Position numbers and translations under genes: made by a program. A stretch of DNA of 64,000 nt, from positions 6,954 through 70,953 of the forward strand of contig CAWBGV010000030.1 of NCBI GenBank assembly GCA_963788395.1. The letters are read 5' to 3'. This stretch comes from Candidatus Doudnabacteria bacterium. GTDB lineage: Bacteria > Patescibacteriota > Doudnabacteria > UBA920. Shown here in pieces: positions 42,880 to 49,790 of the stretch. Each line of letters begins with the position of its first letter. Position 1 is the first letter of the stretch. The notes under the pieces were generated by a model, which had not been told where the DNA came from, searched no databases, and saw nothing but the letters and a program-made list of their open reading frames with translations.

Positions 42880-45497
42880 TTATTTCGCAAACGCCTTCGC
42901 CTGCTCCAATTTTACTGACAGCAACTTGCTCATCCCATCATCTCCCATGGTCACCCCGTACAAAATATTAGCCTGTGCCATAGTCTCGCGGTTATGGGTA
43001 ATGGTAATAAACTGAGTTTGGTGGGCCAGAGTGCCTAAAATTTGGCCAAACCGGATGGTGTTGGCGTCGTCGAGCGCCGCGTCGACTTCGTCGAGTACGA
43101 CGAAAGGCGAAGGAAAACATGTCAGTAAACTACATAGCAGCGCAATCGAAGTCAGCGCCCGCTCCCCGCCTGAAAGTGCCTGAATCGAAGCCAATTTTTT
43201 ATCCGGCGGCGTGGCTTTAATATCCACGCCTAAAACATTGCTGGCTCCGTGCTCATATTTTTGCACCACTTTTTCTTCCGGTCTCAACTCACTCTGCGGC
43301 GTGGCGTCTTCTTCCGCATCTTGTTCCTCTTCGGTTTTTTCCGCTTGCGGCTCATCTTTCAACAAACTCAAATACGCCCGGCCGCCGTTAAACAAGACTC
43401 GAAAATAGTGTTCGAATTTTTCATTAATTTTGTAAAAAGCTTCCTGAAACTTAGTTTTAATATGCTCATCCAGCTCGTCCATCACATGCCGCAGGTCTTC
43501 CATGCCGTGTTTTAAATCTTCCACTTGAGTGCTCAGCGTCGTATACCGCGTTTCTGTTTCTTGATACTCCTTAAGCGTCAGCTCGTCCATGCCGCCAATC
43601 ATTTCCAGTTGATTTTTCAACTTGCCGATCTTTGCTTCCAAATCCTGGGTCTCGGCAATAACGGCTTGCTGCTTAATATTTGAAAAAAGTTCTTCGCCCA
43701 AATTCCGGAGAATGTCATCGGTCAAAACCTGCATTTGGGTATCAACCTTGGCCTTTTCTATATTAACCACAGCTTCTTGGTCTTTAAACTTATTAACGTC
43801 GTCTTGCTTGCGCCGAAACTCGCCTTCTAAATTGTGCAGTTCCCGCTGTTTTTGCGATTCCAGCTGCTGCTGGTCCTTAAATAAATTTTCCAGGCCGGAA
43901 ATTTGCCCAGCCAGAGCCTCAATTTCGCCGTTAACCCGGGTTTCTTCCTCAATCAGACTCTTTAAAAAATCATCATACGAATTACTTTCGGATTTTTTCA
44001 GCTCCAAATCTAAGTGCAGCTTTGCCTGTTCCAAATTTTTGCGCTCTTTTTCCAAAAATTCCAACTGAATTGATGACTTAGAAAGATCTAGTTCCAACTT
44101 GCCGACTTCCGCTGTTAAGCGGTCCCGTTCGCCGGTCAGCTGATTTAATTGGCTCTGCAATTTTACCATTTCGCCTTCGGGATTTTTGGCGGCGTTTTTG
44201 GCGATGGATTTAAAGTTTTGGAATTGCTGGCGCAAATTGTCGGCCAGCTTGCGCACCTGTTCCGCCGGCAACCCCTGGCCCAGCTGGTTATAGAAATCAT
44301 CAACTAAGTGCTCCATGTTATTTAATTCCAACTCAAACAAACTCCAGTCGATGGCCCGCGGAGTCTGCATGGTCTTATAGAGTTCATTGAGCTTATGGGT
44401 TATTTTAACAAGGCCGATTGCTGGTGCACCGCTTGCCGCGCCATGGACCGATCTTGGGTAGTGGTAGTAATCTGCGCCACAACTTCCTGTAAGCGGCGCT
44501 CCGATTCGTGCAATTGCACTTGCAAAGTCTTAACGTCTACGGCTCCGACGGTTTTTTGGCTTTGCATTTTGCCCCGAATTAAACTGCCGTCTTCCAAGAG
44601 CTTGTTCTTTTTTTCCTGTAACGTAGCAAGTTGTTCCTGAATTTCCTTAAACTTGCCGATTTGGCCAATGCTTTCCGTTTCCTGATTTTCGGCCTGCATG
44701 CGCAGAGTTTGCATTTCGTCTTCCAGAGCAGTCCGCTTCTTTAGGAGTTCGGCCAGCTGCTGGGCGAAACCGTCGATTTGCTTCTTTAAAGTCCAGTAAC
44801 GGTCGCCTAAAAATTCACGCTGAAAGACTTTCAGTTCCTGTTCAATTTCCGTCCGCGCTTCCATGCGCTTGGCCTGCCGCCGCAGCGATTTTAGGCGCGG
44901 CTCAATTTCCGCTATCAAATCTTCGGCCCGCATCAAATTTTGCGCTGTCTGCTCCAGCCGCCGCAGGGTTTTTTCGCGTTTAATATAATACGTTTTAACC
45001 CCGCTGGCTTCATCAATTAAATTTTTAACTTCCGAGGGACCGGCCAAAACCATTTGGTCAATAGTTCCTTGGCCAATTACGGTATAGCGGGAAGTGCCAA
45101 TATTACTCTTTAACACCAAGTCGACAATATCCAACAGCCGAACGCGGTTGCCGTTAATTAAATATTCGCTCTCACCGCTGCGGTCAACGCGGCGGCCAAT
45201 ACTAACCTCGGCGGCATCTACCGGAATCCGGTGGTCGCGATTATCAAAAGTCGCAATGGCTTCCGCAAAACCCAAGCGTGTTTTTTTATCTGAGCCGGCA
45301 AATATTACATCGTCGCTCTTTTTTCCGCGCATCAACTTAGCGCTCTGCTCACCTAAGAGCCACCGCAAACAATCGGCAATATTGCTTTTACCGCTGCCAT
45401 TGGGTCCGACAATCGCAATAATTCCCTGAGCAAACTCCATAGTGGTTCTTTGCGCAAAGGATTTAAAACCGTGAATTTCAAGACGTTTGAGATACAT
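42880..45497 (-). CDS. smc: Chromosome partition protein Smc (short form), split by one frameshift near 44370-44400
   Basis: N-terminal fragment with Walker A GPNGSGKSN. C-terminal fragment with the signature LSGGERALT and Walker B VLDEVDAALD. Coiled coils lie between them. Confidence 0.9.
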
Positions 45498-45607: not shown

Positions 45608-46300
45608 TCAAAAATTATTTTGTTTCAACGCATCTTCTGCTGCCGCCAATTCTGCTTCCTGTTTGCTGGGACCGGTGCCGCGACCGGCTTCGTCGGGGCC
45701 AATGTAAGCGCCCACAATAAAGACCTTATTATGATCCGGGCCGGATTCGGAAATCACGCCGTAAGTTGGTGTGACTCCCCGTTTTTCCTGGACTAATTCC
45801 TGCAGCTTGGATTTTGGGTCTAAGTAGCTGCCGCCTTCTATAATTTCCGGCAGTTCGGTTAAAACTTCGCGTTCAATAAACTTGGCGGTTTCGGCGTAGC
45901 CCAAGTCCAAATACAGCGCGCCGATAACAGCCTCAATACAATTCGCCAAAATTACCTGCCGGGCGCGGCCAATATCTTTAGCCTCGCCGCGGGACATTAA
46001 CAAAAATTTTTCCAGGTTTAACCGCTTAGCAATAGCTGACAGAGTTTTATAATTGACCAGCGCGCTCCGGAAATTGGTCAGCTCGCCCTCGGGATGGTTA
46101 TAGTGGGTATATAAATATTCCGTGGCCACCAGTTCCAGCACTGCGTCTCCCAAAAATTCCAGCCGCTCATTGTGGGGCAAATGGAAACCCCGGTTCTCAT
46201 TCAGGTATGACCGGTGAGTAAACGCCGAAAGGTATAAATCTGGATTTTTCATTTTGATGCCGAGAACTTTTTCCAGTTCCGGCTGATTGAGTGTGGGCAT
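45608..46300 (-). CDS. rnc: Ribonuclease III
   Basis: Signature ERLEFLGDAVLEL and a C-terminal dsRBD (GPDHNKVF...GRGTGPSKQEAE). Confidence 0.96.
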   Translation of the reverse strand: MPTLNQPELEKVLGIKMKNPDLYLSAFTHRSYLNENRGFHLPHNERLEFLGDAVLELVATEYLYTHYNHPEGELTNFRSALVNYKTLSAIAKRLNLEKFLLMSRGEAKDIGRARQVILANCIEAVIGALYLDLGYAETAKFIEREVLTELPEIIEGGSYLDPKSKLQELVQEKRGVTPTYGVISESGPDHNKVFIVGAYIGPDEAGRGTGPSKQEAELAAAEDALKQNNF

Positions 46301-46315
46301 GAACTTGAGAAGGAG

Positions 46316-46370
46316 CGCAAAATTCAGAATTCAGAATCGCACCCGGCTATTCCGCGTTCTGAGTTTTGCG
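46316..46370 (-). promoter_or_regulatory. Long hairpin in the rnc 5' leader (candidate RNase III autoregulatory site)
   Basis: 14-bp outer stem CGCAAAATTCAGAA / TTCTGAGTTTTGCG (one G-U) plus an inner stem, 16 nt upstream of the rnc ATG. Confidence 0.45.
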
Positions 46371-46430
46371 TTAAAATTATAAATAAACCTGCACTAACCT
46401 ATCCCCCCAACAAATTTTCTCGTAGAATCC

Positions 46431-46776
46431 AAATGGAAAATTTGGGGAAAGGGGCAACAATCCGAACGAAGCGGAGTCCGCCCGAGGCGGACGAAGCACA
46501 GTGAGGGTAACTTGATTGTTCCTTTTCGGGGCCCCCAAATTTCCCATCCCTAGAAAAAAATCATAGGGAAAATTGGGGAAAGGGGCAACAATCCGAACGA
46601 AGCGGAGTCCGCCCGAGGCGGACGAAGCACAGTGAGGGTAACTTGATTGTTCCTTTTCGGGGGCCCCAATTTTCCATCCCTAGAAAAAAATCATAGGGAA
46701 AATTGGGAAAGGGGCAACAATCCGAACGAAGCGAAGTCGCGTCCGACGCGACGAAACGCAGTGAGGATTGATTGAC
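46431..46776. repeat. Tandem array of three ~131-nt units, each a ~110-nt long hairpin (candidate structured ncRNA array)
   Basis: Apical stems lie at 46476-46492, 46607-46623 and 46736-46752. Copies 1 and 2 are nearly identical. Copy 3 has 4 compensatory base-pair swaps. No ORF and no unique spacers. Confidence 0.8.
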
Positions 46777-46779
46777 CCG

Positions 46780-46855
46780 TGGTGGGCACTAGAGGAATCG
46801 AACCTCTGACCTATTCTACGTCAAAGAATCGCTCTACCAACTGAGCTAAGTGCCC
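46780..46855 (-). tRNA. tRNA-Val (anticodon GAC), CCA encoded
   Basis: The reverse complement GGGCACTTAGCTCAGTTGGTAGAGCGATTCTTTGACGTAGAATAGGTCAGAGGTTCGATTCCTCTAGTGCCCACCA folds into a canonical 7/4/5/5 cloverleaf with anticodon loop TTGACGT. Confidence 0.93.

Positions 46856-47884: not shown

Positions 47885-49790
<1,906 letters not shown>

Follow-up and report, generated by a model that had tools for sequence, protein, structure and literature searches.

What kind of element is repeated three times directly behind a transfer RNA (tRNA) gene, and does it matter that the gene for RNase III, rnc, comes next? We address this for 64,000 nucleotides (nt) of Candidatus Doudnabacteria bacterium (contig CAWBGV010000030.1, positions 6,954 to 70,953; hereafter the window), in which a tandem array of hairpin-forming units lies between tRNA-Val and rnc. 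An earlier note on this DNA had connected the array with RNase III. We find instead that the unit belongs to an undescribed family that occupies the base immediately 3' of the CCA of tRNA and transfer-messenger RNA (tmRNA) genes in Patescibacteria, in the orientation of the tRNA. By its kind, the element is a dispersed structured repeat with an unusual and precise tie to tRNA-like 3' ends. We put at about one half the probability of our main reading, in which the array is a triplet of one such two-hairpin element and the family, located at tRNA and tmRNA ends, is dispersed, non-autonomous and probably mobile.

The array lies on the minus strand and spans 46404-46779. It starts at the base next to tRNA-Val(GAC), a gene with an encoded CCA (46780-46855, minus strand; identified by ARAGORN and scoring 71.7 bits against the Rfam tRNA model): the tRNA ends at 46780 and the first element match starts at 46779. 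Tandem Repeats Finder reported the repeat at 46435-46766 with a period of 131, 2.5 copies and 94% matches (score 574), and a repeat search gave start-to-start spacings of 131 and then 129 nt. The three tandem copies and the spacing that the earlier note had described are confirmed. Read in the direction of the tRNA, the array consists of three complete elements, from 46779 to 46658 (copy 3, tRNA-proximal), from 46654 to 46527 (copy 2) and from 46522 to 46404 (copy 1, tRNA-distal). All three are identified by their folds and by minus-strand matches to a covariance model of the family, R1, introduced below. Copy 3 scored 98.6 bits (E 3e-29) over the full model, positions 1-120, copy 2 79.7 bits (E 4e-23), also over the full model, and copy 1 49.8 bits (E 2e-13) over model positions 2-115. 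Searching the 64 kb for a 19-mer of the unit gave three occurrences against 0.02 expected, all inside the array, and BLAST and nhmmer searches of the window revealed no unit copy outside the array. The units abut, and the claim that they are free of unique spacer-like segments holds. They had also been called free of open reading frames (ORFs); two short ones (56 and 42 amino acids) do overlap the array mechanically, and nothing marks either as a gene.

Copies 1 and 2 are about 97% alike and differ in homopolymer length only. The 17-nt apical stem of hairpin A, found by repeat search, lies at 46476-46492 in copy 1 and at 46607-46623 in copy 2; in copy 3 (46736-46752) it reads GTCGCGTCCGACGCGAC, where copies 1 and 2 have GTCCGCCCGAGGCGGAC. 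Four consecutive pairs are thus changed on both sides by real substitutions with the pairing intact, as had been reported. The assembly calls for some care elsewhere. Compared with intact orthologues in relatives, ftsH (47885-49766, four reading-frame pieces) is broken by three frameshifts and smc (42880-45497, two pieces) by one, reflecting either an indel-prone assembly or pseudogenes. Single-base indels in this assembly, including the homopolymer differences between copies 1 and 2, are therefore not to be trusted, while the rewritten stem of copy 3 consists of substitutions and is unaffected. The differences once described as matched changes in the outer stems of copies 1 and 2 are all homopolymer-length shifts and fall under this caution.

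Relatives of the unit were retrieved by two routes, a synteny survey of 80 rnc loci and a pattern scan of metagenomes built from two loci, L052 and L059. The survey yielded L052, L059, L068 and L037; in L052 and L059, which come from distant relatives, homologous sequence begins at the first base after the tRNA CCA. The pattern scan gave 14 matches, nine of them true loci (L084/L085, L088, L090, L091/L092, L093, L095 and L097) and five chance matches in coding DNA. We built R1 from 11 members and counted copies at E below 1e-4 in the DNA examined. This gave 18 copies, three in the window and 15 in other Patescibacteria, from at least 11 independent loci; four of the copies found by the model (those of L037 and L068 and two in L090) had not been picked by the search pattern. 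Exact scans of GTDB representative genomes and JGI metagenomes for the window type of unit (ATCCGAACGAAGCG...CAGTGAGG) returned zero matches. When the window and 14 element loci were compared with Rfam 15 on both strands, only tRNA and tmRNA passed the gathering threshold, and the best sub-threshold scores over the array were 10-15 bits, to microRNA and long non-coding RNA models. The unit accordingly matches no Rfam family, and the earlier note had likewise been unable to match it to a known RNA family. Scans of viral contigs gave nothing or chance matches of at most 10 bits against the model, similarity was not found in phage and plasmid records, and a description of the element was not found in the literature searched. 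A match to a known repeat or mobile-element family had been named as grounds for abandoning the earlier interpretation; the unit does belong to a family of dispersed repeats, albeit one that is undescribed.

The position of the copies follows a simple rule. All 18 lie on the tRNA strand, and 13 of them start at the first base after the CCA (+1), the other five following another copy or other trailer hairpins. The genes that precede +1 copies are tRNA-Val, tRNA-Leu (TAG and CAA), tRNA-Tyr, tRNA-Ala, tRNA-Arg, a truncated tRNA copy and tmRNA. Thus, two tandem copies follow tRNA-Leu(TAG) upstream of ftsH in L088, and elsewhere the element is found behind tRNA-Leu(CAA) upstream of parB (L093), tRNA-Tyr (L097), tRNA-Ala(CGC) (L090), tRNA-Val upstream of rnc (L091/L092), a truncated tRNA-Val copy upstream of the signal peptidase gene lepB (L095) and the tmRNA gene upstream of infC (L084/L085). 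The element also follows tRNA-Leu in L037 and tRNA-Val in L068, and one of the two extra copies in L090 lies directly after tRNA-Arg. The window copies conform to the family, each combining a full-length R1 match with tRNA orientation and a place at +1 or behind another copy. The array was therefore rightly called tRNA-linked.

The same position is used by other sequences. At least three further families of two-hairpin modules, distinct in sequence (TGTACCATTCGCTC..., CTCGACTCGCT... and CTTCTTCGCTAAAGC...), start at the base after the CCA of various tRNAs: tRNA-Val in L002, L004, L006-L009, L012, L015, L016, L018, L019, L023 and L025, tRNA-Leu in L001 and L002, tRNA-Pro in L093 and tRNA-Ala(GGC) in L090. 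One of these modules shows a 60-nt tandem duplication in L004. Truncated or degenerate tRNA 3' halves ending in CCA stand between a complete tRNA gene and the trailer module at L095 (10679-10747), L063 (2204-2238) and L076 (after tRNA-Leu).

Comparison of the members revealed the anatomy of the unit, a two-hairpin element of about 105-150 nt made of hairpin A, UUU, hairpin B and an NCCCC tail. In the direction of the tRNA, CGGGUCAA opens hairpin A and UUGCCCC closes it; after the UUU, which is conserved in the family, CCCC opens hairpin B and GGGG closes it before the tail. The base of the hairpin A stem reads GGGUCAA(U/C) / (G/A)UUGCCCC. Hairpin A measures 67-73 nt in all members, with variable sequence, and hairpin B ranges from 26 to 66 nt. 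Copy 3 of the window illustrates the plan on the minus strand, with hairpin A from about 46778 to 46711, UUU, hairpin B from about 46708 to 46664 and the tail GCCCCCG; its hairpin B arms (46665-46675 and 46697-46707) are 100% complementary. In copy 1, the loop and 3' half of hairpin B have diverged.

This anatomy revises how the array had been parsed. The unit had been taken for a single long hairpin of about 110 nt, yet every single-copy member folds as the adjacent hairpins A and B. The proposed outer stem (46567-46578 with 46664-46675) joins halves of hairpin B from neighbouring copies, and the pairing that is conserved is the local one within hairpin B, such as 46665-46675 with 46697-46707. 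Two further features turn out to be artefacts of the same framing: what had been taken at 46410-46430 for remains of a fourth unit belongs to copy 1, as the distal half of its hairpin B, and copy 3, said to lack its outer 3' arm, is complete. The U7 tract noted after each unit exists in the window, but it lies in the loop of hairpin B and is not conserved in the family. Nor is the promoter-like TTGCCC-N16/17-TATGAT conserved; like U7, it occurs in the window units and is absent from other members. Several assignments for the element were tried and rejected. A closing stem pairing 5' CGGG with 3' CCCC fails because changes at the 5' end are accompanied by changes in the CCC ahead of the UUU and not in the tail; a K-turn does not fit internal loops that are symmetric; for hepatitis delta virus, hatchet or hammerhead ribozymes the Rfam match is absent and the topology wrong; a small protein would lack a conserved start codon; and a sense-strand promoter in the conserved TTGCCCC would lack a conserved -10 box.

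Conservation of both hairpins through covariation strongly supports selection on the fold. In the 18-row alignment, 90.8% of cells were paired compared with 65% in shuffles, and 19 of 22 pairs showed double-sided changes, figures that lean towards structure since the alignment is fitted to the model and its rows are related. None of 500 shuffles reached the observed score, and sliding the partners as a control cut pairing to 40-55%. An independent MAFFT/RNAalifold run agreed, with compensatory changes in 13 of 22 pairs. The earlier argument for selection on structure is borne out by the homologues, which keep both hairpins through many double-sided changes.

The loops bear on which strand folds. 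In 14 elements, internal-loop bases are 80% pyrimidine on the tRNA strand, and symmetric internal loops on that strand hold 66 C-U oppositions compared with one A-G; A-C oppositions, which are G-U on the complement, number 18 compared with eight G-U. The uniform 2x2 loops, seven in number, show 5'-UC-3'/5'-UC-3' on the tRNA strand without exception, that is, 5'-GA-3'/5'-GA-3' on the complement, where AG/AG never occurs. This 5'-GA-3'/5'-GA-3' arrangement is known as the classical tandem sheared G-A motif; the 3x3 loops of the complement are mostly GNA/GNA. These loop rules fit sheared G-A pairing only on the strand complementary to the tRNA, and the reading of the window units on the plus strand with tandem G-A pairs thus extends to the family. 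Folding points the same way. The complement is the more stable fold in 13 of 14 members, and it is favoured in four of four spacers with the element, whereas the tRNA strand is favoured in 26 of 32 spacers with other hairpin types. In the window, plus-strand folds of the units beat shuffles (z = -3.0, -3.9 and -4.3), while sense-strand folds of copies 1 and 2 are no better than shuffles (z -0.4 to -2.1). The folded species could be bottom-strand DNA, complementary DNA (cDNA) or incidentally transcribed RNA.

We then considered how the element came to be where it is. Only four of the 80 rnc loci contain it, as does a single one of the few tRNA-Leu loci that were captured. The closest relatives, whose rnc is 77-84% identical, have no element at the tRNA-Val/rnc locus, and its conservation there finds no support. 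Copy 3 of the window shares 79% identity with the tRNA-Tyr copy of L097 and 64% with the copy that L091 carries at its orthologous tRNA-Val/rnc locus; the copies of L059 (behind tRNA-Val) and L037 (behind tRNA-Leu) are 74% alike, and the three L090 copies, behind three different tRNAs within 1 kb, group together. Copy number per site also varies, from a decayed remnant (L040) over one copy and a partial second (L059 and L095) and two copies (L052 and L088) to three in the window. The neighbours of the element are housekeeping genes. Sporadic occurrence, similarity across tRNA loci and clustering within genomes suggest a dispersed, probably mobile element.

Other inserts are found at the same tRNA in this clade. 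In L059 (2003-2247) and L064 (2114-2344), inserts of about 230 nt after tRNA-Val, which differ from the element and are homologous to each other, are bounded by perfect 21-nt duplications of the tRNA 3' end, from T-loop to CCA. This is a signature of site-specific integration, yet the inserts are too small for an integrase gene. Within the clade, the 3' end of tRNA-Val is a hot spot for insertion.

For the window, the reading we favour would run as follows. The element would insert at, or be copied to, the 3' ends of tRNA-like genes, and the selected fold would be that of the strand complementary to the tRNA (the plus strand of the window), as single-stranded DNA or RNA stiffened by sheared G-A pairs. 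Lying behind a tRNA promoter, it would unavoidably be transcribed as a tRNA 3' trailer. The triplet would have arisen by local tandem duplication, the apical stem of copy 3 differing through older divergence or conversion by another copy, and rnc would merely be the next gene downstream. In a bolder form, which we offer as speculation and would not ourselves bet on, the family would represent a mobile element of a new kind, specific to the candidate phyla radiation (CPR; Patescibacteria) and targeting the CCA end of any tRNA-like gene via a folded single-stranded bottom-strand intermediate. A DNA hairpin might play this part, recombining at the tRNA 3' end much as attC sites or CTX phage do; so might a cDNA, either made from the trailer transcript that the tRNA promoter drives or primed by the CCA end of the tRNA. 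The constant-length hairpin A with its sheared G-A pairs might serve as the recognition structure, and tandem arrays might be traces of repeated insertion or duplication.

Several points weigh against mobility and a complementary-strand fold. No transposase, integrase or reverse transcriptase was found near any copy, and neither a target-site duplication nor a duplicated tRNA 3' end was found around the window array; a repeat of at least 12 nt of the tRNA-Val 3' end was not found within 700 nt in the window. Nor does a recombinase lie nearby; mobility is inferred from the distribution of copies, and any mechanism of spread is putative. For the complementary strand, a search turned up no conserved promoter within the element or at a constant distance next to it, and a dedicated antisense promoter, which we considered, appeared at no consistent distance; if the selected fold is RNA, its transcription is therefore unexplained. 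The tRNA-sense strand is the only one certain to be transcribed, and on it the element may have a cis role for the tRNA transcript in processing, termination or stability. The search pattern demanded CCACCACGGGYCA and CCCTTTCCC and fetched most of the metagenome members, so that conservation of these motifs and of the +1 junction is partly built in; the members independent of it are those of L037, L052, L059 and L068 and the extra L090 copies. The covariation counts come from the model-fitted alignment, and copy number per genome is seen through 64 kb of this genome and short pieces of others.

The explanation that competes most directly sees the element as serving the host: it would be part of the primary transcripts of tRNA and tmRNA genes and act in cis on the sense strand. 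It would mark the 3' cut, by RNase III or by RNase Z cutting after the CCA, or a transcription stop, and insulate the downstream gene, the three window copies being redundant duplicates. We consider this possible, though we doubt it. The orientation and the +1 position speak for it, as does the presence of the element behind tmRNA, which matures its 3' end like tRNAs; the sense strand is certainly transcribed, the UUU after hairpin A is conserved, and element-free relatives mostly carry other hairpin modules directly after the CCA, suggesting a general need for a hairpin there. However, the loop rules fit the opposite strand (C-U 66 compared with A-G 1; GA/GA 7 compared with 0), and the shuffle-level folds of copies 1 and 2 are those of the very strand that would have to act. 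A U-tract is absent after hairpin B and limited to three U after hairpin A, although the tRNA at 12677-12765 in the same window does end in a canonical hairpin and U-tract. Copies within a genome share variable stem sequences, which would not be expected of independent processing signals, and the element is sporadic among close relatives.

A functional tie to RNase III, as a small RNA (sRNA) array or set of decoys released by or titrating the enzyme and regulating rnc, was the connection originally drawn from the array's place upstream of rnc on the same strand. The long imperfect helices (hairpin A equals about 30 bp) are plausible RNase III substrates, the order tRNA-Val to rnc is conserved in Doudnabacteria, and E. 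coli RNase III cleaves its own leader. The distribution of the family, however, largely refutes this tie: most members are not adjacent to rnc, 76 of 80 surveyed rnc loci lack the element, and the same element follows tRNA-Leu, Tyr, Ala and Arg and tmRNA beside ftsH, parB, infC, lepB and other genes. A TATAAT and a separate, position-conserved leader hairpin intervene between array and rnc, and neither the TTGCCC-N16/17-TATGAT nor the U7 is conserved in the family. We regard the tie as improbable. Still further down the scale, to the point where we give it hardly any weight, is the idea that an ordinary intergenic palindrome underwent a recent, neutral tandem duplication or was multiplied by an assembly error, template switching having produced the compensatory look. 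Templated correction of quasi-palindromes is a known mutational route, the near identity of copies 1 and 2 apart from homopolymer lengths would suit it, and so would the frameshifts in ftsH and smc. It is hard to square with 18 copies from at least 11 independent loci that share the two-hairpin plan and covary extensively, or with tandem copies in independent assemblies (L088 and L052), and neutral duplication leaves the strand-specific G-A rule unexplained.

Adjacency of the array to rnc thus looks incidental, and the rnc neighbourhood offers its own regulatory candidates. The gene (45608-46300, minus strand) is a 230-amino-acid ORF whose homologues carry the Pfam domains Ribonuclease_3 and dsrm and are named ribonuclease III; the window protein is 77-84% identical to those of Candidatus Doudnabacteria and other Patescibacteria assemblies. 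Of 83 related loci, 70 have tRNA-Val(GAC) on the rnc strand immediately ahead of rnc, and the two genes are separated by about 8 to 498 nt. In the window, the units do not fill this gap as had been stated: about 100 nt of other sequence separates the array from rnc. It contains a perfect TATAAT on the rnc strand (46376-46381, minus strand; ATTATA on the plus strand), read from the sequence as the candidate rnc -10 box, downstream of the array and about 6 nt upstream of a 25-bp hairpin (46316-46370, minus strand) that ends 15 nt before the rnc start codon. A good -35 for this TATAAT was not found, and its role as a -10 is our inference. The hairpin was found by repeat search and has a fold z of -3.3. 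Relatives have hairpins of different sequence at its position in their spacers, even in a 60-nt spacer. The hairpin at 46316-46370 is predicted to be a likelier RNase III leader element than the array, and a candidate autoregulatory site. The array, upstream of the TATAAT and with most of its relatives elsewhere, falls outside an rnc leader of this kind, although hairpin A may be cleaved by RNase III if transcribed. Nearly every Doudnabacteria rnc (L005, L012, L007, L002, L052 and others) has a long, often AU-rich hairpin directly 5' of its start codon, and most of these fold better on the rnc strand.

Some other features of these loci were noted along the way. ARAGORN calls window positions 12677-12765 an 89-nt tRNA-Ile(GAT) with a long extra arm; it scores below the Rfam tRNA threshold and its identity is uncertain. 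On the minus strand of L090, a perfect palindrome, AATTGTTCCACGTGGAACAATT, occurs upstream of each tRNA gene (about 2340-2375, 2620-2650 and 1770-1800), possibly an operator or promoter-associated site. In L028 (2098-2500) and L070 (192-594), a 403-nt tRNA-Val/rnc spacer apparently holds a small cysteine-rich ORF (ATGACAGGTACGAAAAAATTT...) and not hairpin modules.

Patescibacteria genomes are minimal, and a non-coding element that is kept and copied at many of their tRNA and tmRNA genes needs explaining. A mobile element of this kind would be small, bacterial and specific for the generic CCA end of tRNA-like genes and not for one tRNA, a specificity of which we found no description in the literature searched; the G-A architecture confined to one strand would then suggest an intermediate that is single-stranded. 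Should the element serve the host, it would show how Patescibacteria finish or insulate tRNA transcripts. Either way, the covariance model allows a recurrent unannotated feature to be annotated, and the family explains the strong length variation of tRNA-adjacent spacers in these genomes.

The element was compared with several known systems. It is not a CRISPR array, as units abut and unique spacers are absent, nor an intrinsic terminator: a scan finds none in the array, the U7 lies in the loop of hairpin B, only UUU follows hairpin A, and NCCCC follows hairpin B. A tandem array of sRNA genes was likewise rejected, since the promoter-like motif and the U7 of the window units are absent from other family members. 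E. coli rncO is, like the array, a long hairpin structure located ahead of rnc on its coding strand. For the array, though, the likely rnc -10 box comes downstream, and its family is unrelated to rnc; the hairpin at 46316-46370 is the better counterpart. Like sRNAs of the 3'ETS-leuZ type, the element is encoded directly after a tRNA, where an RNA could be released by tRNA 3' processing. Those sRNAs, however, are locus-specific and largely unstructured sponges, not a dispersed covarying two-hairpin family, and the pairing rules of the element point to the opposite strand.

Among repeats, REP/REPIN, ERIC and Correia (NEMIS) sequences are, like the element, short non-coding palindromes dispersed in intergenic DNA, co-transcribed with their neighbours and more similar within than between genomes. 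Correia hairpins are RNase III substrates. These repeats lack the strict tie to the base after the CCA and the plan of hairpin A, UUU, hairpin B and NCCCC. REP is marked by a GTAG head, a 20-40 nt palindrome, inverted pairs and a RAYT gene, whereas no GTAG head is seen in the element and its copies are direct; the long terminal inverted repeats and target duplications of Correia and ERIC are not seen either. For a miniature inverted-repeat transposable element, the terminal repeats are too slight, as the element ends share only CGGG/CCCG, and no copy has a flanking duplication. Integrative elements with tyrosine integrases that target tRNA genes, and their integrase-less derivatives (CIMEs), share with the element the 3' ends of tRNA and tmRNA genes as targets and the tandem accretion at one site. 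The element differs in its size of about 120 nt and in having no flanking tRNA 3'-end repeats and no integrase gene nearby, and its presence behind many tRNA species could not be accounted for by a single attP.

Closest in working principle are the attC sites of integrons. They differ in sequence, as the R'' RYYYAAC and R' GTTRRRY motifs are not found and the stem bases of the element are GGGUCAA and UUGCCCC, and the element has in addition a second hairpin and C-tract motifs. Its partner is a tRNA or tmRNA gene and that of attC a cassette; cassette ORFs, an attI site and an IntI gene were not seen in the local DNA examined, nor are there ORFs between copies. With attC sites the element nevertheless shares imperfect hairpins of about 60-140 nt at a gene 3' end in fixed orientation, structure conserved over sequence, the stem being conserved at its base and variable at its top, and the possibility of tandem arrays. 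In attC it is the bottom-strand fold that functions, and the loop rules of the element likewise fit only the complement, a resemblance in how it might work rather than a sign of membership.

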